64,000 bases of DNA from an uncultured Candidatus Micrarchaeota archaeon (GCA_963714085.1 OY970229.1:96001-160000); one strand, 5' to 3'. Shown: positions 11,564-63,222, numbered from the stretch's first letter. Notes: generated by a model from the sequence alone, not told the origin. Numbers and translations are program-made.

Positions 11564-11628
11564 ATTGCCCCTATCGGAATTAACTTTATTAATGTTGCTC
11601 ATCGAGCACCCGGCATCGCGACGCAGCC

Positions 11629-12336
11629 CTAGAGCTTCAAATCCTTGGCCAATCGCACGACCTGGAAGAGCTCGTTGAGCTTCTCGTAGTCGGATATCCT
11701 GCCGATGTCGAACCATACGTCGTCGAAGACGTAGGGCGCGATGCGCTCGCCCTTCTCGAGCATGCGGGGGAAGACGCTCTTCGCGAAGTCCTCCTTCTCG
11801 CGGATGTAGCCGAAGACCTCGGGCTCGAACACGTACATGGCCACGTTGTAGTTCTCCTGCAGCAGGGGCTTCTCCTTGAACGATTTTATGCCGTGAGCGT
11901 CGACCTCCGCGACCCCGTACTCTATTGGGAGCATGTGCTTGAGCAGCGCGATGGTCGCGACCGCCTTCTCTTTCTTATGGTGCTCCACCATGGCCTTGAG
12001 GTCTATGTTCGTGATATGGTCGCCCATGACCACCAGGAAGGTCTCGCTGATCTTCCCCCTGCATGGCAGTATGGAGCCCGCGGTGCTGAGCGGCTCCTTC
12101 TCCACCGAGTACTCTATCTTGACGCCGGAGTCCTTCCCGTCCCCGAAATAACCCTCTATCTGCTCGTGCTTGTAGCCGACCGTGAGCACCAGGTCCTTGA
12201 AGCCGTTCCTCTTCAGGTTCTCTATCACGTACCAGAGTATCGGCTTCCCCCCGACCATGAGCATCGGTTTCGGCGTGTAATATGTGTACGGCTTGAGCCG
12301 GGTGCCTTCCCCACCGCAGAGTACGAATGCCTTCAT
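11629..12336 (-). CDS. Sugar-phosphate nucleotidyltransferase family protein
   Basis: MKAFVLCGGEGTRLKPYTYYTPKPML signature, STAGS, GD, EKP, WFDIG. Alternative GTG start at 12345. Confidence 0.9.
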   Translation of the reverse strand: MKAFVLCGGEGTRLKPYTYYTPKPMLMVGGKPILWYVIENLKRNGFKDLVLTVGYKHEQIEGYFGDGKDSGVKIEYSVEKEPLSTAGSILPCRGKISETFLVVMGDHITNIDLKAMVEHHKKEKAVATIALLKHMLPIEYGVAEVDAHGIKSFKEKPLLQENYNVAMYVFEPEVFGYIREKEDFAKSVFPRMLEKGERIAPYVFDDVWFDIGRISDYEKLNELFQVVRLAKDLKL

Positions 12337-44485: not shown

Positions 44486-45742
44486 TCACTTCTTCGAGCG
44501 TATCCCCTCAAGGACCTCCTTGGCGAAGTCCGAGCCGAAGTTCTTCTTCTCAGCGAGCTCCGCGGCGACCGCGTCTATCTCCTGGGGGGTCTGCGCCCCG
44601 GCTATCACCGCGACGTTCTTCGCATGGAGCTTCATGTGGCCGGCCTGTATGCCGACGCTGCTCAATGCGGCCAGCGCGGCGAAGTTGTTCGCGAGGCCGA
44701 CGCACGCGCACGCCATGGCCAGTTCCTTGGACGTCTTTATCCCGGCTATCTTGAGCGCGATCCTGGCTGTCGGGCTGGAGTTCACCGCGCCTCCGACCGT
44801 GGCGACCGCCATCGGCAATTCGATGCTTCCGAGCAGGTCGCCCTTCTCCGTCGCCTCGTAGCGCGTCAGCGGATGGTACTCGCCCATGGACGCGTAGGCG
44901 TGCGCCCCGGCCTCCACGGCGCGCCAGTCGTTGCCGGTCGCGAGCACGACCGCGTCTATCCCGTTCATCACGCCCTTGTTGTGGGTCGCGCAGCGGTAGA
45001 TGTCGGCTTTCGCGAGCTCGTAGCCGTCCAGGATGCCCTCGACGACCTTGTCGCCGATGACGCCCTTCTTCCAGACCGCGGACGCGCGGACCTTGCGCTT
45101 CACCGCGAGGTTCGTGATTATGCGCAGGCACACCCTGCCGTTCGTGAGCGTCGCGAGGGTCGGGGCCACGCCCTCGAGAGTGGTGTTCACCATGTTCGCG
45201 CCCATCGCGTCGCTCACGTTTATGTCGAACTCCACGAGCAGCATCTTCCCCCTCCGGGTCTCGAGCGCCCTCTCGCGGAAGCCGAGCACCTTGCCTCCCC
45301 ACCTCTCGTGGGGCTTCATGTACTCGGCGGCTATCTTGATTATCTCGTGCCTGTTCGTGTCCAGGTTCCTGATCGCCAGGTCCATGTCAGGCACGTCCAT
45401 GAGCTGCACCTGGCCTGTCATCACCGGCTCCTCGGCCTCTGCCTTGAACCCCTCGGGCAGGCAGAGCTTGGCCGCCCTGCACGCCGCTGCTATCACCGAG
45501 GGCTCCTCCAGAGCCATGGGGATGACCAAAGACTTGCCGTTTATCTTGAAATTAGTAGCCATGCCGAGCGGCAGGTGGACCGCGCCTATCACGTTCTCCA
45601 CCATCCGGTCCGCTAATTCCGGCTTGAGCGCGCCCATGTCGCTGAGCGCTGCCATCTCCTCGTCCGAGACGCCGGAATTCTCCTTTATCAGCTTCCGCCT
45701 CTCCGGAATAGTGAGCTTGTAAAAGCCTGAAAAGTCAGCCAT
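44486..45742 (-). CDS. mvaA: HMG-CoA reductase, class II
   Basis: SGFYKL, MVENVIG, EEPSVIAA, DAMGANMVNT, THNKGVMNGIDA, ATGNDWRA, GIQAGHMKLH. The track ORF is over-extended. Confidence 0.95.
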   Translation of the reverse strand: MADFSGFYKLTIPERRKLIKENSGVSDEEMAALSDMGALKPELADRMVENVIGAVHLPLGMATNFKINGKSLVIPMALEEPSVIAAACRAAKLCLPEGFKAEAEEPVMTGQVQLMDVPDMDLAIRNLDTNRHEIIKIAAEYMKPHERWGGKVLGFRERALETRRGKMLLVEFDINVSDAMGANMVNTTLEGVAPTLATLTNGRVCLRIITNLAVKRKVRASAVWKKGVIGDKVVEGILDGYELAKADIYRCATHNKGVMNGIDAVVLATGNDWRAVEAGAHAYASMGEYHPLTRYEATEKGDLLGSIELPMAVATVGGAVNSSPTARIALKIAGIKTSKELAMACACVGLANNFAALAALSSVGIQAGHMKLHAKNVAVIAGAQTPQEIDAVAAELAEKKNFGSDFAKEVLEGIRSKK

Positions 45743-45765
45743 GGTGCGATTCATCTCCAAAGAAG

Positions 45766-46221
45766 TTATAAACTGTAGCTGTCCTCGAGTTTTTTCAGCG
45801 CTGCGTCTATGTTCCCGAACGCGGAATCCGCCTTGCGGAAGTAGAAATCGCGGAACAGGGAGTTGAGGCTCTTGCCCTCGTCCTCCGAAAGCGCGTAGCG
45901 CCCCTTCTTCCTTGTGAGCATGCCCGCGTTCTTGAGCCTCAGCAGGTGGTAGTACACCGCCTTGGCGTTCGGCTTGGCGCGCGTCTCTGCCTCCAGCCGG
46001 TCGAGTATGTCCTTGGTGGTCGGCGACTCCTTCCTCACGTGGAAATACAGCAACGCGTCGAACACGTCGAGGAGCAGCGTCCTGGACTCGTTTGGCAGTA
46101 TGAGCCCCAGCGAGAGCGCGACCCAGCGCACCAGCGACTTCCGCGCGAGCAGCACGTCCTGGGGGAGCGCCATGTCCCGCAGCACGAGCTCCGACCTTAT
46201 GAGCCTTGATTCTGGAATCAT
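45766..46221 (-). CDS. Winged-helix protein, putative regulator upstream of HMG-CoA reductase
   Basis: PTTKDILDRL...KAVYYHLLRLKNAGMLTRKKGRYAL. Confidence 0.75.
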   Translation of the reverse strand: MIPESRLIRSELVLRDMALPQDVLLARKSLVRWVALSLGLILPNESRTLLLDVFDALLYFHVRKESPTTKDILDRLEAETRAKPNAKAVYYHLLRLKNAGMLTRKKGRYALSEDEGKSLNSLFRDFYFRKADSAFGNIDAALKKLEDSYSL

Positions 46222-46297
46222 GTTTGAATCTCCATGCCATACAATAAAAACCTTATCAATCACGTTAGTAACCAGATGGAAGGCGGGTTTTGAGAAA

Positions 46298-48852: not shown

Positions 48853-50457
48853 ATGGCCAGGCATAAGGCCGGAAGGCTCGGCTTCCAGCAATCACGCATG
48901 GTTACGCCCCCTGCAGGCGCTTTCAGTCCGTATCTGGCAGGGCCGGACACGGGGATGCGGACCGGCGCGCCTCACGGATCCGTGCCGGCGAAGCGCTTGT
49001 GGAGGCGCCGCATGCTCGGCCCGGTCGCCGGCCTCATGCTGGGCGCGCTTTTTGTTTGCGGGATACAGGGCGGGGCGCAGGGGCGCACGCACCATGGGAT
49101 GCGCGCGGACGGCCTGCTTTCCGAGGCTCTTGTCATGGCGGTAATGGACAAACATGCCGCCATAGCGGAGATGCTCCTCAAGCGCGGGGCGGATGCGAAC
49201 GCAACCGGTCCTTTCAACAAGACCGTCCTGATGTGGGCTGCGGAAAACGGGGATGTAGAGACGGTGAACCTGCTCTTGGACCGCAATGTCGACGTGAACC
49301 TCAAGGACACCTGGTTCAGCGGCACCGCGCTGATGCGGGCCGCGGAGAGGGGCCACGGCGAGATCGTGGACCTGCTGCTGAGCAACTATGCGGATGTCAA
49401 TGCCAGGAACAAGAACGGCGATACCGCGCTGACCTTGGCGGTCAGAAGCGGGAGTCCGAGGGTGGTGAACAGCCTGATCGTCGGAGGGGCAGAGATAGAC
49501 GCCAAGAACGCCAACTGGGACACCGCACTGGGCCTGGCGGTGAAGAAGCCGGACGAGGCCCTCGTAGACCTGCTGCTGAGGAAGGGGGCAGACCCCAACG
49601 TGAGGGACAGATCCGGCGTCAGCCTGCTTGAGATCGCCTCTGCGACCGGGGACAGGAGGGATGTCACGCTGCTGATACGGAACGGGGCCCGCGTAGATCC
49701 GAATCTGAAGGACACGGTCACCATGTGGAACGCCTACCAGAAGAGGAGGACGGCGATAGAGCGGTCCGAGAAGCCTGGACTGGGCGAGAAAGACGACGGG
49801 GAGACCGCGCTCAAGCGCGCGTACGGAGAGCTGGTCATAGGCGAGAAAGAGGCGCTGGAATTGCACGAGAGGTTCGGGATAGAGGAGTTCGACAGGTATC
49901 CCAAAGGGGTGCTCGAGAGCATGTACGCTAACCTCGGCAGGCAGGCCGCCAGGCCGCCCATCCTCCACGTAGTCGCGAGATCGGATTACAGCGGCGCGGT
50001 CTATGACTACATCGGCTGGGTGTTCAAGCTGGACCATTACAAGGCGTTCATAGCCGAAGCGGAAAGCGTGGTGGACCTACGGTCCCGGGTGAGGTATACC
50101 GCAGAGACCTACGGCAGGATCGAGTCGATGGTGCTTGGGGGCCATGGCGAGAAGGACAGGATACAGCTCGGATACAAGGAGAATGGAGGAATCCTCACGC
50201 TGCGCGATGAGAACGACATCGCGCAGCTGAAGCCGTATTTCGTGAGCAATCCGACCATCGTGATCGACGCGTGTTCGACCGGGGAAGACGAGATGGCCAT
50301 AGCCGCCATGTTCTCGAGGGCGCTCGATGCGACCGCGTTCGCACCGGTCGCGGTCGCGGAGTTCCGTGGATGCGAAGTGGACGACCAGGGAAGGATAACC
50401 GGGGCGCGCTTCGACGTGCCGACCGCCAAGTTCGTGAGCGGCAAGCTGGTGAAGTGA
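48853..50457 (+). CDS. Ankyrin repeat protein with C-terminal His/Cys (clan CD/DUF4347-like) domain
   Basis: TM segment, ~6 ankyrin repeats (TALMRAAERGHGEIVDLLL), then MVLGGHG...IVIDACSTG. Confidence 0.85.
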   Translation: MARHKAGRLGFQQSRMVTPPAGAFSPYLAGPDTGMRTGAPHGSVPAKRLWRRRMLGPVAGLMLGALFVCGIQGGAQGRTHHGMRADGLLSEALVMAVMDKHAAIAEMLLKRGADANATGPFNKTVLMWAAENGDVETVNLLLDRNVDVNLKDTWFSGTALMRAAERGHGEIVDLLLSNYADVNARNKNGDTALTLAVRSGSPRVVNSLIVGGAEIDAKNANWDTALGLAVKKPDEALVDLLLRKGADPNVRDRSGVSLLEIASATGDRRDVTLLIRNGARVDPNLKDTVTMWNAYQKRRTAIERSEKPGLGEKDDGETALKRAYGELVIGEKEALELHERFGIEEFDRYPKGVLESMYANLGRQAARPPILHVVARSDYSGAVYDYIGWVFKLDHYKAFIAEAESVVDLRSRVRYTAETYGRIESMVLGGHGEKDRIQLGYKENGGILTLRDENDIAQLKPYFVSNPTIVIDACSTGEDEMAIAAMFSRALDATAFAPVAVAEFRGCEVDDQGRITGARFDVPTAKFVSGKLVK

Positions 50458-51815: not shown

Positions 51816-52211
51816 TCACGCTTCTATCCTTCCCTTGTCGGCGTCCACTTCGACCCGCATCCCGTCCTTGAGTTCCTTGAAGACGTCCTTCTCGGGCTTG
51901 TCCACCATGGGTATCTTCGAGATTATGGCGCCCACCGCGATTATCGGCTCGGCCGAGACGTTTATTATGGCCGCCGGAGCCTTGCCGTTCTTCGCGAGCT
52001 GGAGCATGACGTACGAGCCGACCGTGGAGCCCTTGCCGTTCGGGAAGACCAGCACCTTGCCTGCGACGTTCTTCCCTTCCAGGGGATGGCCCTTCTCGAT
52101 GATGACGCCGGTCTCCGGGTCCACGCCGCCGAGGAATCCTATCGGCGCGTGGCTGATGAGCGCCTCGCCCGAGGCCTTGCCGCGCGATATGCTCCTGGCC
52201 TTGATGTCCAT
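51816..52211 (-). CDS. Phosphomevalonate dehydratase small subunit (AcnX swivel, DUF126)
   Basis: MDIKARSISRG, FLGGVDPETG, GKGSTVGSY. Confidence 0.92.
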   Translation of the reverse strand: MDIKARSISRGKASGEALISHAPIGFLGGVDPETGVIIEKGHPLEGKNVAGKVLVFPNGKGSTVGSYVMLQLAKNGKAPAAIINVSAEPIIAVGAIISKIPMVDKPEKDVFKELKDGMRVEVDADKGRIEA

Positions 52212-52771
52212 CAGTATCCCCTTAGCGCCTTCAGCGCCATCAGGAGCGGGTTGATGGCGAAGATTATGTTGAGCACGACCCATATCGCCGCCACGTCGTG
52301 CTTGTCGTAGTAGTAATCCACGAACGAATACAATGCGATGACCAGACTGCCCACGCCGAGTAACAGCCCGAAGTACAACGGATGCGCGGTGGCATCCGTC
52401 GCGAAACCGGCCCCTACGAGGAGCAGCCCCGCGCTGGACACGATGCCCCATGCGCCGCTATCATATTTTTTGGTCAATCGCAGATAGATTATCCCCACCA
52501 GGGCCGCGCCCAGGAGCACGGCGTATTTGACCACGTCGCTGATCGCCAGGAAGGCGAACATGGAGCCGAGGCTGATGACGATCTCCAGGACGAACAGGGT
52601 CCCCTGCCTGCCCAGGTACGCGCATAGGGTCAGCATGAGCGCCCCGATGACGAACAGTGACCGCTGCAGCAGCGATGCCGGCTCGGAGACCACCCCGATC
52701 AGCAGCAGTATCATCGCGCTTATCCCGATATAAAGAACCAGGATGTCCGTCCCTTTTGGTGTTGGCCTCAT
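52211..52771 (-). CDS. Hypothetical multi-pass membrane protein within the mevalonate operon
   Basis: Six to seven hydrophobic segments; TGATG overlap with the downstream gene. Confidence 0.8.
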   Translation of the reverse strand: MRPTPKGTDILVLYIGISAMILLLIGVVSEPASLLQRSLFVIGALMLTLCAYLGRQGTLFVLEIVISLGSMFAFLAISDVVKYAVLLGAALVGIIYLRLTKKYDSGAWGIVSSAGLLLVGAGFATDATAHPLYFGLLLGVGSLVIALYSFVDYYYDKHDVAAIWVVLNIIFAINPLLMALKALRGY

Positions 52772-52775
52772 AGAA

Positions 52776-53948
52776 TCACCTGAACAGTATGTCTTCCAGA
52801 TCGCCGAACGCGACCTTCTGCTTGCAGAGGTTCGGGAGGTAGGCGGCCGCCTTGCCGGAGTTCGTGCCGGTCACGACGTGGCCCATCTCCTCCAGCGGGC
52901 AGACCACCATGCAGGTGTCCGCGACTATCAGGCCGCCCGCGCCTTCTATCGCCTTCCTGTAGCCGAGCCTGTCAGCCTCCTTCCTGAGCTTCCCGGACGT
53001 GCACACCCAGAACTCGCAGGTGGGCTTCCTTTCGGAGACGAGCTCCGCGACCTCTTTGATCTCTTCGAGCGATGCGTGCGGGCATCCTATGGTCACCAGA
53101 TCCGGCTTGAGGCCGCTGTCCAGCCCCTTCCTGGAAGCGGACAGGTCCGCCTCCGTGAATTCGATGCGCTGCGCGTCCTGCGCAACGCTCCATTCAGGAG
53201 TGATGCCTTCCATGAAGAACAGCGGCACGGAGCCCGTGGCTGCCATGGACGCGCCCAGGACTTTCAGCATGTGCTCGCCCGCTCTCTTTATCCCGCGGAA
53301 CGCGGGATACTTGTTCTTCGCCATCTTGCCCACTGCGGAACCTATGGCGCCGAAATCCGCCATGGACTTGAGCTCGCAGCGCACGTCAATGAGTACGTCC
53401 GCCACGCGGTTCTCCTCCATATGGAGGCCGTAATACGGCGTCACTCCGCATATGGCCGCAGCCAATGCGCTCGGCCCGCCCTCGCGGTTCGTCCTCGCCC
53501 CGAGCACGGAGTTCGCGAACGCTATGGCGCTGGATTCTGACCATGCCACGTGCTCGCCCTTCCCCGGGCGTATGCCTATGAAATACGGCGCGCAGGTGCA
53601 GGTCTTCATTATGCCCATGCTGGAGTACGCGTCCAGTATGGCTATCTGTTTTTTCGCGAAATCCTCCGGTATCTTCATCTCCCTCCACTGCTCCCTGTCC
53701 ATTCCGGCGGGATTCAGGAACGATGGAACAACGGTCTTCGCGCCCTTGGAGGAGAGATCCTGGAGGTATTCCAATCCAGCGTCTCCGATCGTCTTGTACG
53801 ATACTCCGGCTATCTGGGCGCTGGTGACCGGGATCATTTTTTGCGCGCCGTATATGTTGCCCAGTGCGACGAGGATCTCCATGGACTGCCGTGCGGCCTC
53901 GCCCAGTTCACCGTCATACATCTTCTGCTCTTGCTTCTTTAGGAGCAT
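52776..53948 (-). CDS. Phosphomevalonate dehydratase large subunit (AcnX, DUF521)
   Basis: AGVSYKTIGDAG, TCTCAPY, AWSESSA, NSVLGARTNREGG, IGCPH, DTCMVV, TNSGKAA. Confidence 0.93.
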   Translation of the reverse strand: MLLKKQEQKMYDGELGEAARQSMEILVALGNIYGAQKMIPVTSAQIAGVSYKTIGDAGLEYLQDLSSKGAKTVVPSFLNPAGMDREQWREMKIPEDFAKKQIAILDAYSSMGIMKTCTCAPYFIGIRPGKGEHVAWSESSAIAFANSVLGARTNREGGPSALAAAICGVTPYYGLHMEENRVADVLIDVRCELKSMADFGAIGSAVGKMAKNKYPAFRGIKRAGEHMLKVLGASMAATGSVPLFFMEGITPEWSVAQDAQRIEFTEADLSASRKGLDSGLKPDLVTIGCPHASLEEIKEVAELVSERKPTCEFWVCTSGKLRKEADRLGYRKAIEGAGGLIVADTCMVVCPLEEMGHVVTGTNSGKAAAYLPNLCKQKVAFGDLEDILFR

Positions 53949-53958
53949 CGGGTCCACA

Positions 53959-55257
53959 TCAGATATAGCGGCTGGGGTCGACGGCCATCCACCCCGCCTT
54001 GTCGAAGTTCTTGCCGTGCGCCACCAGCGGCTTCGTGGCGTCCACGCCCATCTTCGTGGTCGCGTAGGTGTGCGGGTCCGCGCTCGGGTCCAGCGACGAG
54101 CCCTTCTCGTTCCTCTTTATGAGCAGGGACTTGTCCGCTTGCACCCTTGTCGCGATCGCCCATTCCACGGACGAGGGGTCGTAGATGTCTATGTCTTCGT
54201 CCACTATCACCACGTGCTTGAGGGACTTGTGGCCGTGGAACGCGGCCTCTATGGCCTTCCTGCCGTCGTCGTCGCCCCTCTTCCTTATGGAGACCACAGC
54301 GTGGAGCCAGGAGCACCCGCCCGGGGTGATGTTGACGCCCCTGCAGTCGCAGACCTTGCCCACTTCGTTGAATATCGTCGGCTCCCTCGGCATGCCCATG
54401 AGGAGCTTGTGCTCCAGGGCGCCGGGAAGCAATGCGTGGAATATCGGGTCCTTGCGGTGATGCATCTTCGTTATCTTCATGACCTGCTGCTTGCGCACTA
54501 TGTCATAGGTCTCCGTGAGGTCTATGAACGGCCCCTCGTCCGCCAGCTCGTTCGTTATCCTCCCCTCGAACGCGAACTCCGCATCGGCCGGGACCTCTAT
54601 GCCGTTGCCCAGGCGCACTGTGCTCACCGGCGCGAGCGAGTTTGCGACCTGGAGCTCGTCCTTCCCCAGCTCCGTGGACGTCGCCCCTGCGAGGAGCACG
54701 TTTATCGGAGCGCCCACCACGAACGCGACGTCGAGCTCGCCGCCCGACCTTTTCAGGTATTCAGCCAGGTGCCTGGGCAGTATCCTCATGACGACCCTGT
54801 CCTTCCCTATCACCATCATCCTGTGGAAGGAGCAGTTCCTGCCCAGCCCGCTGTCGTTGGCGATCACGACCGCGGACGCGAAATACGGGCCGCCGTCCTT
54901 TTCGGCATGGAACGGAATCGGGAGCTTGCCCAGATCGACCTCTTTCTCGGTCACTTCGAGCACCGGGCCGGTGGAGACGACTTTCGGATTCGTCGGATTT
55001 TTTATCGCTTCCGCGAGCCTTGGCATGAGCTCCTTCTCCTTTATGCCCAGGTATCTGCACACCAGCGCGCGCGTGGAGAATAAATTCCCCGCGACCCTCG
55101 CGCCGGGATTCTCGGCTATCTTGTCGGTGTAGACCGGCCTTCCGTCCAGGGCCTTGAGCACGCCTGCGAGCTCCAGCCGCTTCGACACCGGTTTTTTTAG
55201 CTCCACGAGCGTCTTCTCCTTCCTCAGGAGGTCTATGAAATCGCGGAACGACATCAT
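53959..55257 (-). CDS. ubiD: UbiD family decarboxylase (anhydromevalonate phosphate decarboxylase by context)
   Basis: DGGPY, NCSFHR, EGPF, EHKLLMG, VDEDIDIYD, WAIATR, GSSLDPS, KMGVDATK. Confidence 0.92.
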   Translation of the reverse strand: MMSFRDFIDLLRKEKTLVELKKPVSKRLELAGVLKALDGRPVYTDKIAENPGARVAGNLFSTRALVCRYLGIKEKELMPRLAEAIKNPTNPKVVSTGPVLEVTEKEVDLGKLPIPFHAEKDGGPYFASAVVIANDSGLGRNCSFHRMMVIGKDRVVMRILPRHLAEYLKRSGGELDVAFVVGAPINVLLAGATSTELGKDELQVANSLAPVSTVRLGNGIEVPADAEFAFEGRITNELADEGPFIDLTETYDIVRKQQVMKITKMHHRKDPIFHALLPGALEHKLLMGMPREPTIFNEVGKVCDCRGVNITPGGCSWLHAVVSIRKRGDDDGRKAIEAAFHGHKSLKHVVIVDEDIDIYDPSSVEWAIATRVQADKSLLIKRNEKGSSLDPSADPHTYATTKMGVDATKPLVAHGKNFDKAGWMAVDPSRYI

Positions 55258-55787
55258 GCTTTCCACCTCTTTCCGATGCTGTGCTTGATACCGAGCTGGT
55301 CCAGCACGCGCGCCACCATGAAATCGAGCAGGTCATCTACATCCTTCGGCTTGCCGTAGAAGCCCGGCGACGCGGGCATTATGACCCCGCCTGCGAGCGT
55401 GACTGTCTCCATGTTCCTTATGGTTATGAGCGAATAAGGCGTGTCCCTCACCACGAGTATGAGCTTCCTCCGCTCCTTGAGGCAGACCTCGGCCGCGCGG
55501 GTTATCAGCGAGTTGCCCACTCCGTTCGCGATCTCGCCCAGGGTCTTGAGCGAGCACGGGCAGACCACCATGGCGTCCGGCGGGTTGGAGCCGGAGGCGT
55601 AGGGGCAGCTGAAATCCCTTTCCCCATAATCCGCCCTGGGGAGGGCCACGCCTTCGGCCTTGGCGACCTCCTTCGCCCCTGAGCTGACCACGACCGAAAC
55701 GTCCTGCTTCAGGGCTTTCAACGACCCGAGCAGCGACACCCCGTAAGGAAGGCCTGACGCTCCCGTGATTGCGAGAAGTATCTTCAT
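55254..55787 (-). CDS. ubiX: Flavin prenyltransferase
   Basis: AITGASG, ASGS, PCS, RAAEVCLKERR, PASPGFY. Confidence 0.95.
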   Translation of the reverse strand: MKILLAITGASGLPYGVSLLGSLKALKQDVSVVVSSGAKEVAKAEGVALPRADYGERDFSCPYASGSNPPDAMVVCPCSLKTLGEIANGVGNSLITRAAEVCLKERRKLILVVRDTPYSLITIRNMETVTLAGGVIMPASPGFYGKPKDVDDLLDFMVARVLDQLGIKHSIGKRWKA

Positions 55788-55840
55788 GACTGTTTTCTGC
55801 CTCAGAAGGCTTAAAAAAACCCCTTTTGCATGCTTATTCC

Positions 55841-56596
55841 ATGAAACTGCTCAAACTGGGGGGCTCTGTGATAACCCGGAAGTCGGGATGGCGCGAGGCG
55901 GACCTCAAGGCGATAGAGGCGCTGGCGGACGTCGTGGCCTCGGCATGGAAGAAGTCCGAGCGCGACTGGGTGCTCGTGCACGGGGCAGGCTCGTTCGGCC
56001 ACCCGCTGGTCGTCAAGTACGGCATCAACGACGGCGTGAAGAACGCTGCGCAGAAGCTCGGGTTCGCGATGACGCACGAGGCATGCTCGGAATTGTCCGT
56101 GCTCGTCGTCGGAACGCTCAACAGCGCCGGAATGCCCGCGGTGCCGGTTCCGCCCGCCATGGTGATAACCTCCAAGAACAGGCGCATACACTCATTCAAC
56201 ACGAAAGTGGTCGACGATTACCTGAAATCCGGGTACGTGCCAGTGCTTTTCGGGGACATGGTCCCCGACATAGAGCTCGGCGGCTCGGTGTGCTCCGGGG
56301 ACCAGATAATATCCTACCTGGGCAAGGCTGCGGAGCGCATACTCCTAGCCACGAACGTGGACGGGGTGCTCGACGACAAGGGAAAGGTCATTGAGCAGAT
56401 AACGGGCAGGAACTTCGCGGACGTCTCGCGGCATTTCAAGTCCGCGGAAGGCGACGTCACCGGGGCAATGGCAGGCAAGATAAAGGAATTGCTCGAGCTT
56501 GATACTCCTTCTTACGTGGTCAACGGGCTGAAGCCTGAGCGCGTGGAGGCGCTCATGCTCGGGAAGAGGGCGGTCTGCACCGAGATAAGGAAATGA
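55841..56596 (+). CDS. ipk: Isopentenyl phosphate kinase
   Basis: KLGGSVIT, VHGAGSFGH (IPK His), FGD, SGD, DVTGAMAGK. Confidence 0.93.
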   Translation: MKLLKLGGSVITRKSGWREADLKAIEALADVVASAWKKSERDWVLVHGAGSFGHPLVVKYGINDGVKNAAQKLGFAMTHEACSELSVLVVGTLNSAGMPAVPVPPAMVITSKNRRIHSFNTKVVDDYLKSGYVPVLFGDMVPDIELGGSVCSGDQIISYLGKAAERILLATNVDGVLDDKGKVIEQITGRNFADVSRHFKSAEGDVTGAMAGKIKELLELDTPSYVVNGLKPERVEALMLGKRAVCTEIRK

Positions 56597-56635
56597 TGAA
56601 CACAAAATGTAATCATTTATAAGATAATCCCATCA
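56553..56635 (+). repeat. 83-nt direct repeat copy 1 (ipk 3' end plus TATA promoter of sigma-like gene A)
   Basis: Four mismatches versus 57989-58071; contains TTTATAAG at 56616-56623. Confidence 0.95.
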
Positions 56636-56646
56636 TAACTTTTTTC

Positions 56647-57981
56647 ATGCCAGAGACAGCAACCGCCAGGGTTATTTTTGCGCCTAAGGCCAGCCGCGCT
56701 GTCCCGCCCAGGCGCTGCAAGCCGCATTTCTTCGCATGCCAGACAGAGGGCATACGCAAGCAGCCAAGGGGCGCCGGCAAAACCCGCAGGAAAGCCCTTC
56801 TGAACAGCGAGCTGGCAGGCCTCTGGGAGTTCGCTAAGAAGAGAAAGGCGACCATCTCGAAGAAAGAGGAGGCGGAGATGTTCGGGATATACCTGCGCGT
56901 GGTCAGGCGCATGCAGGAGCTGAAGCATCTGCGGGAAAGGTGGAACGGACCCGTGAAACAGGAGCTCGTGCGCCTTTCCGAGGCGAAGGAGCTTGCGGAG
57001 AGGGTGGTCGCGAGCAGAGGGGACATGAGATACCTCAGGGAACTCGCTGCAGAGAAGAGGCGGTCGCTCGAGAAAGAGGAGGAATACGCCGTCTTCCGGA
57101 TTTATAGGCGGGTGCTCCCCCGCATGATGAACCTCGGGAAGGGAGGCATTGCAGCGAACGCGGAACACGGACTCGTGGCTCAGGAGATGGAGCGGCTTTC
57201 CGAGGCGAAAAGGCTTGCCGAGACCATAATCATCCAGACCATGGAAAAGCAGTTCTGGATGACAGCCAAATACGTGATCCACCCCTCGGTCATAGAAAAA
57301 TCAGACCTCGTTCAGGAGGCCTGCATGGCTGTAGTAAGAAGAGCTATGCGCACCTTTGACCCTGACCAGGACTGCAGAATCTCCACGTACTGCCAGTTAG
57401 GGATAACGCGGGCCATGAAACGCGCGGTTCAGAATCAGGGGAAGACCATCAGGATCCCGTGCAATACGTACACCATAAGCGCCAAGGTCAACAGAGCTTA
57501 CATGGAATGCCGCAAATCTGGCTACGAGCCGACCGCGCAGGAGATAGCTGATCTTGCCGGACTCGACCTGAAGAAGGTCGTGAGATGCCTCGAAATGCCG
57601 GATACGCTCAGCATGGACGTTAGGCCAGAGGACAGGCTTGCATTAATCGATACGATTCCGGACAATGGCATGGATCCGCTGGAGACGCTTGTCAACGCTG
57701 AGGTGGGAAGCGTGGTGGAGACGCTCCTTGGGAAACTGAGGCCCGACCAGCGCAGGATATTGTGCATGAGGCAGGGCCTGGGCTGCAAAGAGCACACGTT
57801 GAAGGAGATCGCAGAAGTAGATGGATGCAGCGGCGAGAACATAAGGCAGAAGCTGTTCAAGATAGCGAGAAGGATACGCAATGCGAACAAGGCGCTGCTG
57901 CGCGAGTACCAGGGCTATGGCCCCGATGACGAAGCGCCATCCCATGAACCCGGAGAGCAGGCCAGCGCCGGGCAGCGGTAG
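56647..57981 (+). CDS. Divergent sigma70-family (RpoD/RpoS-like) protein A
   Basis: DLVQEA, FDPDQDCRISTY, QGKTIRIP, EPTAQEIA, LSMD, LIDTIPD, LRPDQRRILCMRQGL, TLKEIA...ENIRQ; collinear with sigma regions 2, 3 and 4. Confidence 0.88.
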   Translation: MPETATARVIFAPKASRAVPPRRCKPHFFACQTEGIRKQPRGAGKTRRKALLNSELAGLWEFAKKRKATISKKEEAEMFGIYLRVVRRMQELKHLRERWNGPVKQELVRLSEAKELAERVVASRGDMRYLRELAAEKRRSLEKEEEYAVFRIYRRVLPRMMNLGKGGIAANAEHGLVAQEMERLSEAKRLAETIIIQTMEKQFWMTAKYVIHPSVIEKSDLVQEACMAVVRRAMRTFDPDQDCRISTYCQLGITRAMKRAVQNQGKTIRIPCNTYTISAKVNRAYMECRKSGYEPTAQEIADLAGLDLKKVVRCLEMPDTLSMDVRPEDRLALIDTIPDNGMDPLETLVNAEVGSVVETLLGKLRPDQRRILCMRQGLGCKEHTLKEIAEVDGCSGENIRQKLFKIARRIRNANKALLREYQGYGPDDEAPSHEPGEQASAGQR

Positions 57982-57988
57982 CCTGCCA

Positions 57989-58071
57989 TCATGCCCGGGA
58001 AGAAGGCGGTCTGCACCGGGATAAGGAAATGACGAACACAAAATGTAATCATTTATAAGATAATCCCATCA
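57989..58071 (+). repeat. 83-nt direct repeat copy 2 (ipk 3' remnant plus TATA promoter of sigma-like gene B)
   Basis: Encodes remnant MPGKKAVCTGIRK* versus MLGKRAVCTEIRK* in ipk; TTTATAAG at 58052-58059. Confidence 0.95.
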
Positions 58072-58082
58072 AATGAATTCTC

Positions 58083-59426
58083 ATGCTCGCAGCAGAAACG
58101 GCCAGGCGCACTCATATCCAATCAGCCGGCACGGCCCGTCCTGGACGCAAAGCATTGAGGCTCGTCGCGTGCGAGACGGAGACGATCCGCAAGCATCCAG
58201 CCAACATCAACGGGGCCCGCGGGAAGCCGCTGTCTGCGAAGGAGATGAGATACCTCGAAAGGCTCGCTGCAGAAAGGAAGGAGGTCATCGGGAAAAAGGA
58301 TGAGGCCGAGGTATCCGCGATATACCTGCGCGTGGTCTGGCGCATGGAGGAGCTGCAGGCGAAGCGGGCCACCAGGGCCGTGAGACTCGAACTCGAGCAG
58401 CTCTCCAATGCCAAGGGGCTTGCCGAGGGAATGGTCGTGAACGAGGCCGAGCTGCGGCAGCTCCGGGAAATCGCGGCGGAGAGGGCCAAGACGCTCGAGC
58501 CAGGAGTGGAACGGTACATCTGCACCATCTATCGGCGCGTGCACCCCCGCCTCATGAGTCTCAAGGAGGTCAACGAGGCGCAGAAAAAGATACCCGGGCA
58601 GCAGGGCTGCAAGGCCGAAAAGGAGCCCGGGCTCATCGAACGGGAGATCAAACGGCTCGCAGAGCCGAAGAGGCTTGTCGAGGATATAGTCACCACCGGG
58701 TTGAACGCGTTATTCTATGACAGGGCCCGGCGCATCTTAAGGTACCCTGATTCCATAGAGCGGTGCGATCTCGTCAATGAAACCAAGATTGCTGTCATAA
58801 ATAACGTCATGCCCCGTTTTGATCCGACCCTCGGTTACAGGCTGTCCACGTACTGCAACTTGCCGATGAACCGGGTCATGGTACGCTACGTACAGACTCA
58901 TAAGAGGGATATCAGGTGGCCGGTCTACATATGCGAGGCGATAGGCAGGTTGAGCAAGGCTTCGCAACTGCGCCGGAACCTGGAAGGCAGGGAACAGAGC
59001 ATCGAAGAAATAAGGAAAACCACGGATCTCCCCCCGAGCGTGATCGCAGCGTGCATGAGAGCGCCGCAAACGGTCAGCCTGAGCGAAAAGCTGCGCCACG
59101 GTGAAGGGAAGAAGCGGATCGACCGTATCGAGGATACAAGCAGCGTGAATCCGCTGGACGCGGTTTTCGATAGCAAAGCGAAGGATCTGGTGAACGAGTG
59201 CCTCGACGTACTCAGCCCGAGGTATGCGAGGATAATGCGCATGAGATACGGCCAGGACCAGACGCTCGACGCGATCGCTGACCGGGAGGGCATATCAAGA
59301 GAGAGGGTGAGGCAGATACTGGCCAAAGCCTTGAGGACGCTGCGCAGGAAGAATAGGATGAAGCTGTGCGATTTCTACGGGGGCAAACCGCCCTGTTACG
59401 ACCAGCAGGCTAATCTTGAGATGTAG
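58083..59426 (+). CDS. Divergent sigma70-family (RpoD/RpoS-like) protein B
   Basis: DLVNE, RFDPTLGYRLSTY, DIRWPV, GREQSIEEI, VSLS, IEDTSSVNP, LSPRYARIMRMRYG, QTLDAIADREGISRERVRQILAKALRTLR. Confidence 0.9.
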   Translation: MLAAETARRTHIQSAGTARPGRKALRLVACETETIRKHPANINGARGKPLSAKEMRYLERLAAERKEVIGKKDEAEVSAIYLRVVWRMEELQAKRATRAVRLELEQLSNAKGLAEGMVVNEAELRQLREIAAERAKTLEPGVERYICTIYRRVHPRLMSLKEVNEAQKKIPGQQGCKAEKEPGLIEREIKRLAEPKRLVEDIVTTGLNALFYDRARRILRYPDSIERCDLVNETKIAVINNVMPRFDPTLGYRLSTYCNLPMNRVMVRYVQTHKRDIRWPVYICEAIGRLSKASQLRRNLEGREQSIEEIRKTTDLPPSVIAACMRAPQTVSLSEKLRHGEGKKRIDRIEDTSSVNPLDAVFDSKAKDLVNECLDVLSPRYARIMRMRYGQDQTLDAIADREGISRERVRQILAKALRTLRRKNRMKLCDFYGGKPPCYDQQANLEM

Positions 59427-59488: not shown

Positions 59489-60154
59489 ATGAACAAAAAG
59501 GCGCTCGCGTCCATGGGCTGGATAATCCGGACCATGAGCACCGAAGCCGGAAAAAGAAATCCTCCGGTCAACAAGGTGGACAGGATAACCCGCAGCAGCC
59601 CGTTCCGCGCGCTCGTCTTCACGATCCTTTCAGCGAGGACGAAGGACGCGAACACCATCGCCGCGGCGGGAAGGCTGCTCGAAAAAGCACCGACCCCGAA
59701 AGCGCTCGCGCGCATGCAGATAAAGAAAATAGAAAAACTCGTGCATTCTTCCGGATTCTACAGGATGAAGGCCAGGAACCTCTCCGCCATGGCGAAGATG
59801 CTTCTGACGGATTTCAACGGCAAGGTCCCGTCCGATATCGAGAGCCTGGTGCGCCTGCCGGGCGTAGGAAGGAAGACCGCTAACATCTTATTGGTCTATT
59901 CCTTCGGCAAGGACGCCATTCCGGTGGACACCCACGTGCACAGGATAAGCAATAGGCTGGGCATAGTGAGAACGAAGACGCCGGAGAAAACGGAGAAGGC
60001 GCTCATGTCCGCGGTCCCGAAGAGGCTCTGGAAACCGCTAAACCACGCGTTCGTGTCCTACGGCCAGACCATATGCCTGCCCAGGAACCCGAAGTGCAGG
60101 GAGTGCAAACTGAACAGGGTATGCTGGAGAATCGGCGTGCGCTCCGGTATATAA
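59489..60154 (+). CDS. nth: Endonuclease III
   Basis: ILSARTKD, LPGVGRKTA, IPVDTHVHRI, C-x6-C-x2-C-x5-C Fe-S motif. Confidence 0.95.
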   Translation: MNKKALASMGWIIRTMSTEAGKRNPPVNKVDRITRSSPFRALVFTILSARTKDANTIAAAGRLLEKAPTPKALARMQIKKIEKLVHSSGFYRMKARNLSAMAKMLLTDFNGKVPSDIESLVRLPGVGRKTANILLVYSFGKDAIPVDTHVHRISNRLGIVRTKTPEKTEKALMSAVPKRLWKPLNHAFVSYGQTICLPRNPKCRECKLNRVCWRIGVRSGI

Positions 60155-60308: not shown

Positions 60309-61418
60309 TCACGGAAGGCAGTTTATCGGCGGCATCTTTCGCGCCGGCTCGAACGAGTCCCCGATCAAGCCTGCGAACACCCGGGCACCTTTGATTTCGA
60401 CGCTACGGAGAACCGAAACCAATGGCGCATCGGCCGGGTTCTTCGGATTCTCCGCGATCCGCTCTATGCCGCGGGCGAAGAGCTCGTTCTCGTATATCCC
60501 GTTCAGCTGGGCCCGCAGGGACGCGAGCTCCTCCAGAGGCAGCTCAGGCACGGAGACCTCGGAGCCGAGGGAGCCGATCAGCCGCTTGAATTCCCGGAGG
60601 CCGCCCAGGACGCCATCGATATTCCCCATGGTGGAATCGACGTATCCCTTGAAATCCACCGAAGGGTCCGGCTTGTCGATCTCGGCGTCGAGGGCCTTGG
60701 TGGATTCGTTCCAGGCCATCAGAAGGTTGCCGGTCCGGACCAGGACCACGGCGCAGGATCGCAATGTTCTGGCATCCATGGACTCGCCACCGGAGTCGTC
60801 TATGGCGTCCATGCGCTCTTTTACCTTATCGTGCGAATCGAAGAAGGCGCGGATCAGCCGGCCTTCGATTTCCATGGAGCTCTTCATGAACACGGAGAAC
60901 GTGTCGAACAGATACCCTTCGAAGACCAGCTCAGACGTGGCGCTGGGCGTGGTCCTGTCCAGGGCTTGGGCAGCACGCTTCCGGTCGTCGCATCCCATGC
61001 GCTCCCAGAGGTAGTGACCCACCTCATGGTCCACGGCGCTGTTTAAGATGCGTTGGTCGTAGGTTATCTCGAAAGACGCGACCCGGCCGTCATCCTTGAA
61101 GCTGATCCGTCCCTCTAAAGACTGGAGCTTTCTGAGGTAAGCGGCCTCGGGCTCAGGCATGCGTCTCAAAATGGAGTCCGAAACCGCCCTCGGGACCAGG
61201 GAGACGGCGGGTATGGCGTCCGCCACCGGCTGGGGCCATCGCCCAAGCTCGCGCTCCACCGAGCCGCCGCGGCGTATGCCCTCGCACCGGGCATGCAGGG
61301 TCCCGAGCTCCTCCCTGATGGACCTTCTCTCCGCCATTATCGAAAGGCATTCGCGGGTCGCGGTAGCGGTAAGCGCCGTGATGGCGACTGCTGCGATGAT
61401 GCGATTGCGCGGCTTCAT
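60309..61418 (-). CDS. Exported hypothetical protein with HExxH zincin motif
   Basis: N-terminal MKPRNRIIAAVAITALTA signal; AVDHEVGHYLW and distal NELFAR; TTATAAATA box upstream. Confidence 0.65.
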   Translation of the reverse strand: MKPRNRIIAAVAITALTATATRECLSIMAERRSIREELGTLHARCEGIRRGGSVERELGRWPQPVADAIPAVSLVPRAVSDSILRRMPEPEAAYLRKLQSLEGRISFKDDGRVASFEITYDQRILNSAVDHEVGHYLWERMGCDDRKRAAQALDRTTPSATSELVFEGYLFDTFSVFMKSSMEIEGRLIRAFFDSHDKVKERMDAIDDSGGESMDARTLRSCAVVLVRTGNLLMAWNESTKALDAEIDKPDPSVDFKGYVDSTMGNIDGVLGGLREFKRLIGSLGSEVSVPELPLEELASLRAQLNGIYENELFARGIERIAENPKNPADAPLVSVLRSVEIKGARVFAGLIGDSFEPARKMPPINCLP

Positions 61419-61456: not shown

Positions 61457-62356
61457 CTAGACCACGGTTGTGTAGAACGCATCGTAGCCGATCTTCTTTA
61501 TCGCCCGGATTATCTGCTCCGCGTGCTCCTGGTCCTTGGCCAGCGCGATGCAGCATCCACCGCCGCCCCCGCCCGTCAGTTTGGCGCCGAGCGCGCCGGC
61601 GTCCAGCGCGGCCCTGTTTATCCTGTCGTTGTCCTCGATGGAGACGCCCAGCTCCGAGAGGAGCGACTGGTTCTGGTTCATTATCTTGCCGAACGCCTCG
61701 AGCTTCCCCCTCTCCAGGTCCGCCTTGGCGTTGTGGCAGAGCTCGCGCGCCTCGTCGAGAAGCTGCTGGAACCCGTCCTCGTCCTTCTCCTTGAACTCGT
61801 TGACAAACGCGACCATCTTCGCGGTCGCGCCGAACTTGCCCGTCATGCCCACGGCCAGGTGCAGGGGCAGGCCGAGCTGGAAGCGGTCCAGCACGTTGTC
61901 CGAGTAGGACTTGCCCTTCGTGAACATGATCACTCCCCCGTAGGTCGCCATGGCGTTGTCTATGCCGCTCGGGTTCCCGTGGAACACCTTCTCGCCCTCG
62001 TACGCGAAGCGGTTGACCTGCGCGTCGTTAAGGTCCAGGTGGTGGACATAGGACATGTAGCGGACCAGCGCAACGGAGAACGCCGCGGACGAGCCCAGGC
62101 CCCCGTAGGTCGGCAGGTCGCTCTCCATGAAGACCTTGTACTTCTGCTTTATCCCCATGGCGTCGAGGATCGCGGCTATGGCGCGCCTGCTGATCTCCGG
62201 TACAACGTGGACGTCCGTGGATATGTCGTTGACCTGCGCCTCCTCGGCCCAGACGATCGCGCTGTTGGATATGCCCGCGGCTATCGCCGGGCTTCCGTGC
62301 ACCACGAAGTGCTCCCCGCAGAGTATGATCTTCCCGTAGCCTATGCCTTTGACCAT
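61457..62356 (-). CDS. mvk: Mevalonate kinase
   Basis: GKIILCGEHFVVHG, PTYGGLGSSAA, HGNPSGID, GAKLTGGGGGGC. Confidence 0.95.
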   Translation of the reverse strand: MVKGIGYGKIILCGEHFVVHGSPAIAAGISNSAIVWAEEAQVNDISTDVHVVPEISRRAIAAILDAMGIKQKYKVFMESDLPTYGGLGSSAAFSVALVRYMSYVHHLDLNDAQVNRFAYEGEKVFHGNPSGIDNAMATYGGVIMFTKGKSYSDNVLDRFQLGLPLHLAVGMTGKFGATAKMVAFVNEFKEKDEDGFQQLLDEARELCHNAKADLERGKLEAFGKIMNQNQSLLSELGVSIEDNDRINRAALDAGALGAKLTGGGGGGCCIALAKDQEHAEQIIRAIKKIGYDAFYTTVV

Positions 62357-62361
62357 TGTAA

Positions 62362-63222
62362 TCACGCCTTCGCTTTCCTTCCCCTCACCTTCGGGGGCTT
62401 TATGTCCGGATACGCGGACGAGAGCATCTCCGGGCTCGCGTAGGGCTTGAACCCCACTGTTTCGAACGTCTTGCAGATAACGTACGCGTCTGAGAGCCGC
62501 TCGCCCTTGAGCTCGGGCAGTATCACGCCCAAAGCTTCCACGAGGTTGCCGTAGGCCCTCCTTTTGCCGGACGCGGCCTTCGCGACCAGTGCGTCGTCCT
62601 TGACGGTCCCGCTCAGATCGAACGCCTTGTTCGCGGCGGTGTGGACCGCGCTCGCGAGCAGCGCGGAGACCTCGTAGTCCTTCACGTTATCCAGCCCGAG
62701 CTTCTTGATGCTTATCCAGCTCTTGTACTTGCCTACGAACATGATGACGTCCCCGGCCTCCTCCTTGCTCGGGACGATGGACGTCTTGGCTATGGAATCG
62801 CCCATGCGGAAGCTCACCTTCGCCTCCGTGAGCAGCAGGTTGAAGAAGCAGGATTCGGCTGCAGGGAGTAATTGGATACGACCGGCATAAGCATTAAAAC
62901 TCTTATCCTGGGCGATATTTATCGTCCCCCCATAGACAGGGCCTTGGCAGAATTTTTTCAGTTCCTCCTTGATTTGGCTCTGCGGACGGGATTTCAGGAA
63001 CGCGATGACCGCCTTCAATCCTGTGCCGGACGGCTTGGCGTACGCCCTTATCCCCGCGACGTCTATGCCCGAGAGCGCGAACGCGTAAGGTTCGGCCGCG
63101 TCGCACACCGCGCCCAGCACCTTCGCGACCTCCGAGTCGTCAGCGGACGCGAGCCCGTAGCGCAGCTCCTTCCGAAAATCCTTGTACGCCCCGGAGAGTA
63201 TTATCTCGTCTTCGCCTTCCAT
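62362..63222 (-). CDS. Conserved archaeal hypothetical protein (possibly DUF2666-like, internal duplication)
   Basis: MFVGKYKSWISIKKL...EVSALLAS echoes the N-terminal ILSGAYKDFRKEL...EVAKVL. Family name is tentative. Confidence 0.6.
   Translation of the reverse strand: MEGEDEIILSGAYKDFRKELRYGLASADDSEVAKVLGAVCDAAEPYAFALSGIDVAGIRAYAKPSGTGLKAVIAFLKSRPQSQIKEELKKFCQGPVYGGTINIAQDKSFNAYAGRIQLLPAAESCFFNLLLTEAKVSFRMGDSIAKTSIVPSKEEAGDVIMFVGKYKSWISIKKLGLDNVKDYEVSALLASAVHTAANKAFDLSGTVKDDALVAKAASGKRRAYGNLVEALGVILPELKGERLSDAYVICKTFETVGFKPYASPEMLSSAYPDIKPPKVRGRKAKA

Follow-up and report, generated by a model that had tools for sequence, protein, structure and literature searches.

Two rapidly evolving sigma-70-family genes resident in a Micrarchaeota chromosome and their conserved promoter block

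The stretch of DNA analysed here (the window) comprises 64,000 nucleotides (nt) from the genome of an uncultured Candidatus Micrarchaeota archaeon (GCA_963714085.1 OY970229.1:96001-160000) and harbours a tandem pair of genes, A and B, which encode two proteins of the sigma-70 family. Transcription in archaea starts with the TATA-binding protein (TBP) and transcription factor B (TFB), and sigma factors should have nothing to bind there. A and B were identified to be chromosomal archaeal genes, each possessing a canonical archaeal promoter predicted to be leaderless, and to belong to a family inherited in place in two core-gene slots, wherein the sigma proteins evolve 4-7 times faster than their neighbours. 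It is tentatively suggested that A and B are domesticated intracellular DNA-binding or polymerase-associated regulators, acting at least on their own promoters. The genes and the domains of their products are:

Sigma-like gene A: 56647..57981, + strand, ATG start, 444 amino acids (aa)
Protein A: residues 1-134, basic tail with a C-x-T-E-x-I-R-K motif and an extra region-1.2-like repeat; residues 135-422, region-1.2 position to region 4.2
Sigma-like gene B: 58083..59426, + strand, ATG start, 447 aa
Protein B: residues 1-132, N-terminal extension; residues 133-431, region-1.2 position to region 4.2

Two sigma-70-family proteins in an archaeal genome

A preliminary description of the window had claimed two tandem near-full-length sigma70 homologues, a reading borne out by the open reading frames (ORFs) given above and by the agreement of Pfam, NCBIfam and structure; likewise the motifs quoted therein, TIRIP in A and DIRWP together with the helix ISRERVRQILAKALRTLR in B, are present in the translations. 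The two proteins are 36% identical across an alignment of 437 residues (E 5e-70). With Pfam, A scored above the cut-offs for Sigma70_r2 (25.3 bits, cut-off 24), Sigma70_r3 (31.3 bits, cut-off 25.3) and Sigma70_r4 (37.7 bits, cut-off 24.1), and B for Sigma70_r4 (58.1 bits; PF04545, cut-off 24.1) and Sigma70_r4_2 (30.1 bits) only, with no Pfam match of B to region 2 (PF04542) or region 3 (PF04539) at E<=0.01. Region 2 of B is backed by a model alignment running through domain 2 (Z about 14) and region 3 of B by structural alignment alone. The sole NCBIfam cut-off surpassed by both proteins was that of the superfamily model TIGR02937 (A 59.3 and B 79.2 bits, cut-off 42.9), with RpoD/RpoS/SigA-type models ranking first. 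The RpoD equivalog TIGR02393 (RpoD_Cterm) gave the best score of B (113.5 bits) and 92.1 bits for A, both below its cut-off of 354, and the best equivalog or subfamily score of A, obtained with TIGR02997, was 95.8 bits, again below the cut-off (384.5); with the remaining RpoD, RpoS and SigB models both proteins stayed far under every cut-off. The family model, when run as a control, yielded matches in ten of ten bacterial and in none of four archaeal control genomes.

Both proteins were modelled confidently by AlphaFold2, the predicted local distance difference test (pLDDT) being 85.4 for B and 84.2 for A, and the top Foldseek match of the B model was the mycobacterial SigA within a holoenzyme structure (6dcf_F, E 2.4e-11). 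VIA-align superposed B 133-431 onto E. coli sigma70 106-611 (Z 13.8) and B onto T. thermophilus SigA 89-416 (Z 14.1, 267 residues aligned, root-mean-square deviation (rmsd) 12.2), A 137-422 onto M. smegmatis SigA (Z 14.4, rmsd 8.1, 274 residues aligned) and A 135-421 onto E. coli sigma70 106-611 (Z 14.1); altogether Z ranged from 13.8 to 14.4 with 267-278 residues aligned for A (135-422) and B (133-431), whereby T. thermophilus SigA was covered from 89 to 416/420. A Z of about 14 is by itself indecisive for helical proteins and is paired here with a sequence E-value of about 1e-25 to HrdB, the best sequence match in the Protein Data Bank (PDB; E 1.4e-25). Considering both the structure alignments and the HrdB match, A and B are sigma-70-family proteins, collinear from the region-1.2 position to region 4.2. 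The earlier claim of collinearity with group 1/2 sigma regions holds for the models over this range; in terms of sequence families it was not matched by any equivalog cut-off or by Pfam regions 2 and 3 in B. Similarly, the proposed profile search recovered regions 2, 3 and 4 in A and region 4 in B, and left Sigma70_r1_2 without a match at E<=10.

The long form represented by A and B consists of four parts, i.e., a basic, disordered tail which ends with the conserved motif C-E-x-E-T-I-x-K, an additional helical module (residues 51-118 of B), a further module homologous to it which occupies the structural position of region 1.2, and regions 2, 3 and 4; the internal repeat of the module is seen both in the DNA (repeat families D1 and D3) and in the protein. 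At the region-1.2 position the models align with E. coli sigma70 from residue 106 (B from 133 and A from 135 on) and MAFFT puts a YL..L motif onto bacterial region 1.2, yet Pfam Sigma70_r1_2 (PF00140) gave no match even at E<=10 with the N-terminal pieces of A, B and three relatives. Region 1.1 (PF03979) found no Pfam match in A or B, and the first 50 residues, which are predicted to be disordered, have a net charge of +11 in A and +7 in B. As a whole, A and B possess net charges of +21 and +26 versus a bacterial mean of -5, all 19 of 19 archaeal members are net positive with a median isoelectric point (pI) of 9.8 as compared to 5.7 for 49 bacterial relatives, and this difference resides mostly in the N-terminal part. 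A and B are strongly basic and do not possess the acidic autoinhibitory region 1.1. The ESM Atlas, searched with residues 1-185, returned a best score of 0.85, which is under the usable level.

The host genome is a single contig of 1,571,539 base pairs with archaeal markers throughout (Micrarchaeota, DPANN). The archaeal RNA polymerase A' model scored 1107 bits, which is over its cut-off, and the bacterial beta' model (TIGR02386) matched only the archaeal A'/A'' genes of the genome (299.7 bits versus a cut-off of 963.5); the genome has only the archaeal RNA polymerase and no bacterial core polymerase. It encodes two TFB and one TBP, and within the window an ABCE1-type Fer4+ABC protein, an HTH_10 regulator and HMG-CoA reductase were found. 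The guanine-plus-cytosine content (GC) of A and B (0.57-0.58) and that of their third codon positions (GC3; 0.74 and 0.76) are like those of the surroundings. In a freshwater-sediment sequencing run, two overlapping unitigs of 100% identity span the region from ipk, the gene preceding A, across the A promoter into A, and further unitigs span the A end/intergenic junction and the junction of B with the following gene nth, so that the proposed read check of the junctions came out in favour of the assembly. This run is possibly the assembly's own sample and thus not independent, and its unitigs leave 58064-58104 (inside a 118-nt repeat) and 58697-59042 uncovered. A peat run from a second study contained pieces of A and B at 98-99% identity, with seven differences per 581 nt in the sigma genes versus five per 699 nt in the flanks at strain level, i.e., no hypermutation.

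Between genomes the picture is a different one, with flanks 81-96% identical and same-slot sigma genes 41-58% identical. Nei-Gojobori estimates of the ratio of non-synonymous (dN) to synonymous (dS) substitution rates were obtained for three pairs, wherein L067, L051 and L020 denote loci of related genomes and G001 s1 the first sigma-like gene in the slot of the related genome G001:

B vs L067: sigma dN/dS 0.59 (95% bootstrap 0.46-0.75), flank 0.10; dS sigma 0.52, flank 0.63
B vs G001 s1: sigma dN/dS 0.38, flank 0.09; dS sigma 1.20, flank 0.88
L051 vs L020: sigma dN/dS 0.31, flank 0.06; dS sigma 0.97, flank 0.78

Sigma protein evolution in place is 4-7 times faster than that of the neighbours. 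As dS is unsaturated and matches that of the flanks, best so for B versus L067, the low identity reflects rapid in-place change rather than old alleles, and a non-orthologous allele replacement behind the low identity of B-type genes was ruled out for this pair (dS 0.52 versus 0.63). Nine of the nine complete long-form genes are open (349-498 aa) at a dN of 0.3-0.55, and A/B-type genes are neither neutral nor ordinary. The same contrast was observed for a sister short-form subfamily in the RtcB slot, where RtcB is 80% and the sigma protein 25% identical. The contrast in rate with the neighbours argues that the sigma genes are not passive leftovers of gene transfer. That A and B are resident, duplicated and diverging archaeal genes, as the preliminary description had it, is thus supported by the archaeal polymerase, TBP and TFB set, syntenic relatives, GC3, the TATA-box distance described below, dN/dS values below 1 and intact ORFs.

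Promoter block, conserved residues and suggested function

Each gene is preceded by a block of 37 nt, whose TATA box TTTATAAG was correctly located 31 nt before each ATG by the preliminary description:

Promoter block of A: 56601..56637, + strand; CACAAA 56601-56606, TATA box 56616-56623, 31 nt before the ATG
Promoter block of B: 58037..58073, + strand; CACAAA 58037-58042, TATA box 58052-58059, 31 nt before the ATG

The order within the block is CACAAA, about 9 nt, the TATA box and then A-A, A-CA-A. Alignment of the upstream regions of ten long-form genes yielded 24 columns without variation, of which about 20 belong to the 37-nt block and the other four lie at the start codon, although the proteins concerned are only 30-58% identical, are encoded behind one or the other of two upstream genes and comprise both partners of tandem pairs; the block is hence conserved across paralogues, slots and species. 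A related element precedes four short-form relatives; an examination of the regions ahead of 21 more distantly related sigma-like genes from the phylum did not reveal it. In the 1.57-Mb genome a 20-nt pattern (<=2 mismatches) recovers only the sites of A and B. When a wider regulon was searched for, the upstream half-site (<=1 mismatch) gave five matches versus two for the control and the downstream half-site seven versus none, the five extra ones lacking a convincing gene start at promoter distance. An RNA element in place of the promoter was considered and rejected, since RNAalifold yielded 0 pairs and Rfam only a tRNA in the window.

The TATA box itself follows the norm of the genome, where TATA-like boxes peak at -32 to -29 from start codons (233 in the bin versus about 10-30 in most bins further upstream), and TTTAWA occurs 28-35 nt upstream in 198 of 1269 crude gene calls with a mode of 29-30 and with approximately no information in the consensus outside the box. 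The peak at 29-32 nt implies that most mRNAs of this genome would be leaderless, and as the TATA distance of A and B equals this norm, we infer leaderless transcription for both of them. The conserved bases flanking the TATA box are, on the other hand, family-specific. Since the cis element outlasts the divergence of the proteins it drives, the block is most simply taken as an operator, which would imply autoregulation by the family itself. It may be speculated that CACAAA and the TATA box are read as a -35/-10 pair, with which their spacing is compatible, but the site corresponding to the key -11 adenine is variable.

For the proteins, the residue reference comprised 59 positions invariant in at least 90% of 49 bacterial relatives, of which G001 s1 keeps 46, B 35 and A 30. 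Region 2.2 is the best-conserved segment (mean pairwise identity 0.52), and together with the region 4.2 helix it is recognisable in A and B against bacterial group 1/2 sigmas. In the L051-L020 pair dN/dS is 0.13-0.14 in regions 2.2-2.4; in the B-L067 pair it reaches about 1.0 in regions 2.3-2.4 and 1.46 in regions 3.0-3.1, values which are noisy given fewer than 60 codons per window. A Trp-Trp dyad, which we take to be the promoter-melting residues of regions 2.3-2.4 on the basis of E. coli numbering, is kept together with an STY...RQA motif in seven of 11 long-form members and is replaced by L-G in A and L-P in B; one other second copy is also without it. As the dyad is lost in both copies, A and B are unlikely to act as classical promoter-melting sigma factors.

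Considering these data, the tentatively preferred model assumes that A and B are transcribed by TBP, TFB and the archaeal polymerase and that their products would act inside the archaeon as DNA-binding transcription regulators. Here, the region-4 helix-turn-helix would recognise CACAAA just upstream of the TATA box of its own gene, a process from which autoregulation is proposed to follow, and RNA polymerase would probably still be contacted through region 2.2. The repurposed DNA-binding regulator envisaged by the preliminary description fits this evidence and is retained as a suggestion. Several observations weigh against it. The region-4.2 recognition helix varies among members while the CACAAA element is constant, and this element is confined to the two genes, so that nothing beyond autoregulation was seen and another factor could bind it. 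Conservation is strongest in the polymerase-binding helix of region 2.2 and the -10-reading residues are kept in most relatives, a pattern which suits a true sigma-like protein bound to the polymerase better than a free DNA-binding protein. Moreover, a dN/dS of 0.3-0.6 is equally expected of a weakly constrained, slowly decaying gene, positive selection is not demonstrated by the window estimates of about 1-1.5, as these rest on fewer than 60 codons, and none of the listed sequencing runs which contain the locus is recorded as RNA.

The conservation of region 2.2 would also suit a true sigma-like (co-)initiation factor for the archaeal RNA polymerase, which would dock on the A' clamp coiled-coil via this region and help to open particular promoters alongside or instead of TFB, an alternative regarded as unlikely. 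In its favour the archaeal enzyme is the sole RNA polymerase of the genome, an alignment of 11 relatives shows no variation in its A' clamp coiled-coil, the constraint on regions 2.2-2.4 in the L051-L020 pair equals that on housekeeping genes, and most long-form members retain the dyad and STY...RQA. That clamp is, however, identical in genomes with and without sigma-like genes, a full set of TBP and two TFBs is present, no sigma-type target promoters were found, and A and B themselves have lost the dyad and 24-29 of the 59 bacterial-invariant positions. A complex prediction for A' 1-420 with B 120-345, supplied as alignments, scored 0.01 (mark 0.32), which has no bearing on binding. In an extended version, which appears quite doubtful, the canonical family members (region 2.2, Trp dyad and region 4 kept) would be bacterial-type initiation factors rewired to the archaeal polymerase, docking on the universally conserved A' clamp coiled-coil, reading a bipartite TATA-overlapping element (CACAAA, about 16-17 nt, an A-A-T-containing hexamer) and competing with or assisting TBP/TFB, with A and B as melting-deficient regulators or antagonists; if true, the family would provide the first case of a sigma-type factor that acts on a eukaryote-like polymerase.

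The high rate of change at intact ORFs, along with a second copy and a neighbouring orphan gene which turn over within the slot, could alternatively be explained by a conflict-related protein, virus- or mobile-element-derived or antiviral, serving as a fast-evolving decoy or inhibitor of a viral, competitor or host transcription machine. This was judged to be rather unlikely. 'rpoS' genes have been reported on DPANN viruses and one prophage in the accessible part of a 2025 paper (PMC12647753), and A and B are weakly similar to the sigma part of MzaA. The slots are, in contrast, core metabolic ones without integrase, defence or viral genes, and none of 88 pattern matches in IMG/VR was confirmed as a relative. 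A comparison with the INPHARED phages gave 52 records, with identities below 60% throughout and less than 80% of the query covered in each, and phage sigma factors (<=34% identity, <=64% coverage) are no closer than bacterial ones; the MzaA score of 96 bits lies far from the cut-off of 800, and the strain-level differences in the peat run resemble those of the flanks.

That A and B are functionless, slowly decaying relics is held to be improbable. The dN/dS of up to 0.59, the values of about 1 in regions 2.3-3.1 for B versus L067, the loss of canonical residues and the patchy occurrence (49 of 401 genomes, see below) would be in line with decay, but it is hard to reconcile with nine of nine complete long-form genes remaining open despite a dN of 0.3-0.55, an upper confidence limit of 0.75 for dN/dS, a strongly conserved promoter block and two confident structure models. 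Even less probable is an effector delivered to a bacterial partner or prey in order to bind its core RNA polymerase, the other role offered by the preliminary description, which did not withstand comparison with the data: A and B possess neither a hydrophobic N-terminus nor a signal peptide or membrane segment (highest 19-residue hydropathy 0.8), secretion genes do not occur beside the pair and the Trp dyad is lost. In its favour, the group-1/2 sigma fold is complete between the region-1.2 position and region 4.2, most relatives have kept the residues for core binding and -10 reading, and the genome itself encodes no bacterial polymerase. The cultivated Micrarchaeota are known from archaeal hosts, which likewise counts against such an effector. 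Finally, an assembly chimera or bacterial contamination, in favour of which nothing was found, the only stretches unbridged by unitigs being the two named above, is very unlikely to the point of dismissal, because the locus resides in a single contig with archaeal markers throughout, its junctions are crossed by unitigs, both genes recur in a second study, GC and GC3 are host-like and the same arrangement is found in G001 and L067.

The locus renders the puzzle of DPANN sigma factors testable, as it offers a defined subfamily with intact genes and a conserved polymerase-binding helix in region 2.2. The 37-nt block, being far better conserved than the proteins, provides a ready-made candidate binding site, and A and B represent natural 'melting-dead' variants beside canonical relatives. 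As such, the locus is a practical entry point to the role of sigma factors in archaea.

Slots, origin of the tandem and distribution of the family

The pair is located between archaeal ipk and nth, as had been recognised in the preliminary description (AA_kinase/IPK upstream, HhH-GPD/Nth downstream):

ipk (isopentenyl phosphate kinase), upstream slot anchor: 55826..56596, + strand, Pfam AA_kinase 108.6 bits
ipk 3' tail, first repeat copy: 56553-56596, + strand, last 44 nt of ipk
Non-coding ipk-tail remnant: 57989..58032, + strand, directly after the A stop, with 3 mismatches to the genuine tail in 44 positions
nth (endonuclease III), downstream slot anchor: 59489..60154, + strand, Pfam HhH-GPD 91.7 bits

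IPK is 89% identical to its orthologues in G001 and L067, and Nth 81% identical to that of G001. In this first slot long-form genes directly follow ipk in the present genome (G000), in G001, in L067 and in L069, where the contig end cuts the locus; in the second slot they reside between PGM and PRS (PRPP synthetase), as found for L051, L068 and L020. Each slot holds long-form genes as one or two copies.

B is, judged from the phylogeny described below and from its dS values, the resident orthologue of G001 s1 and the L067 gene. Neither G001 nor L067 contains an orthologue of A, for which the best match reaches 39% identity. The second copy differs by genome, with A in G000, s2 in G001 and none in L067. 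A direct repeat (D2) of 118 nt with 86% identity (56553-56670 versus 57989-58106) includes the ipk tail and its remnant, and the latter marks the event which created the tandem. Given 3 differences in 44 positions as compared to the 36% identity of A and B, this remnant is far younger than the A/B split, and the tandem would hence not be a simple recent duplication of B. It is suggested that divergent alleles recombined at the ipk-tail/promoter segment common to them, whereby a divergent family member came to lie ahead of B, with gene conversion of the repeat as an alternative to this origin.

Together with nth, the sigma pair is inserted between IPK and mevalonate kinase in a near-complete archaeal-type mevalonate pathway, which spans 18 kb (window 44486-46240, 51816-56596 and 61457-62365) and includes HMG-CoA reductase, the AcnX swivel and large subunits, a UbiD-type decarboxylase, UbiX, IPK and mevalonate kinase; the AcnX large subunit was assigned by its 88% identity to G001 AcnX. 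A 337-aa orphan, absent from the window, is located behind the sigma gene(s) of both G001 and L067 (L018 5140-6150, - strand; L067 5494-5844, + strand) as a second variable occupant of the slot; it has two internal repeats (K-I-Y-P-W-E ... A-A-V-[KR]-W) and no Pfam match. Between nth and mvk, the window contains a 369-aa orphan (60309-61418, - strand) with a hydrophobic N-terminus and no Pfam family, which lacks a counterpart at the same place in G001. Further away, a 3265-aa ORF (window 1919-11716, - strand) with 17 HYR-domain stretches, right-handed beta-helix/NosD repeats and CarboxypepD_reg probably encodes a surface protein, and ankyrin-repeat proteins are encoded at window 48853-50457 (+ strand) and, near a sigma-like gene in genome G314, at L059 4825-5397 (- strand).

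The long form is rare. Among 1.84 billion representative proteins, HMMER found six at E<=1e-30 and about ten sharing the N-terminal half, beyond which came bacterial group-1/2 sigmas with approximately 33% identity over the C-terminal ~200 residues. Of 401 genomes of the phylum, 49 (from 33 of 155 genera) contained matches to the family profile (E<=1e-5), many of them to region 4 only, and in ten genomic contexts the sigma-like genes adjoin archaeal core genes (RtcB/archease, A-type ATPase, ribosomal proteins, GatD/GatE). A metagenome scan with protein B alone returned no loci, one with alignment A3 returned three, and a scan of genome contigs with a five-row alignment two.

A FastTree phylogeny (LG model; 97 rows, 240 core columns) was calculated from 35 archaeal ORFs, 2 metagenomic and 60 bacterial sequences, the latter chosen at random (45 of 138 and 15 of 67), with one archaeal row dropped for short coverage; the tree is without a reliable root and no donor was drawn from it. 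The long form and two relatives form a clade (support 0.948), within which B groups with the L067 gene (0.998) and both with G001 s1 (0.899). Branch lengths in the archaeal part are about double those in the bacterial part, and five other Micrarchaeota sequences fall inside the bacterial cluster (0.795). A recent bacterial transfer was ruled out by the best bacterial identity of ~33-37% over ~200 residues, the host-like composition and the syntenic position. The best explanation is that the subfamily is bacterial in origin, ancient and long-resident in Micrarchaeota.

Three further sigma-like loci deserve mention. In another genus, a three-gene array between GatE and GatD (L060, G018:C1, 4261-11643) encodes proteins of 1661 aa (with Sigma70_r2 and r4 embedded in it), 358 aa (of weak sigma similarity) and 410 aa (sigma-like). 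Outside the window, the present genome contains one 472-aa frame with two separate Sigma70_r4-like matches (G000:C1:1528905-1529660). At L052 (G250:C7, 9101-10073 and 3097-4146) RtcB is present as two short fragments beside a sigma pair, with a LAGLIDADG-like ORF nearby, and may be intein-bearing or broken.

Comparison with known sigma-family systems

The presence of sigma-70 genes in DPANN archaea, including Micrarchaeota, is already published. In the accessible part of their report, Castelle et al. 2021 (PMC8204110) describe such genes (fam00359, K03086) as most prevalent in Woesearchaeota and not accompanied by anti-sigma factors; their Table S3 lists fam00359 with frequencies of 0.154 for Micrarchaeota (13 genomes), 0.39 for Woesearchaeota and 0.38 for Pacearchaeota. 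As a consequence, the novelty implied by the preliminary description was too high, given that 15% of 13 Micrarchaeota genomes had been recorded there. A and B correspond by description to this phenomenon, each being a sigma-70 protein on a bona fide DPANN chromosome with primary-sigma-type models as best matches. The accessible part of the report gives presence and absence only, and the long N-terminal form, the two slots, the rate contrast and the promoter block are not described in it. A search of the literature returned no assignment of function for DPANN sigma-70 genes.

The second precedent, likewise compared by description and from the accessible part of the source, comprises the divergent 'rpoS' auxiliary genes which were reported for DPANN viruses and one prophage from acid mine drainage (PMC12647753). 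These are also divergent sigma-family genes linked to DPANN, yet A and B sit, unlike them, among mevalonate-pathway and DNA-repair genes.

As regards the sigma part of MzaA from the MZA anti-phage system (NF041931), A 217-416 and B 225-429 align to model positions 500-710 with 65.6 and 95.8 bits, respectively, versus a cut-off of 800, but the roughly 500-residue N-terminal part of MzaA is absent from A and B and MZA partner genes do not occur nearby.

With the bacterial group 1/2 sigmas (RpoD/SigA/HrdB, RpoS) A and B share fold and domain order (Z about 14 over 267-278 residues). They differ from them in possessing a basic N-terminal extension with a duplicated module and in being devoid of region 1.1 and the Trp-Trp dyad, and they are placed under an archaeal TATA promoter in a genome without a bacterial core polymerase. 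As compared to all these systems, the rare long-form architecture, the two fixed slots, the 4-7-fold rate excess, the family promoter and the recombination scar seem to be new.

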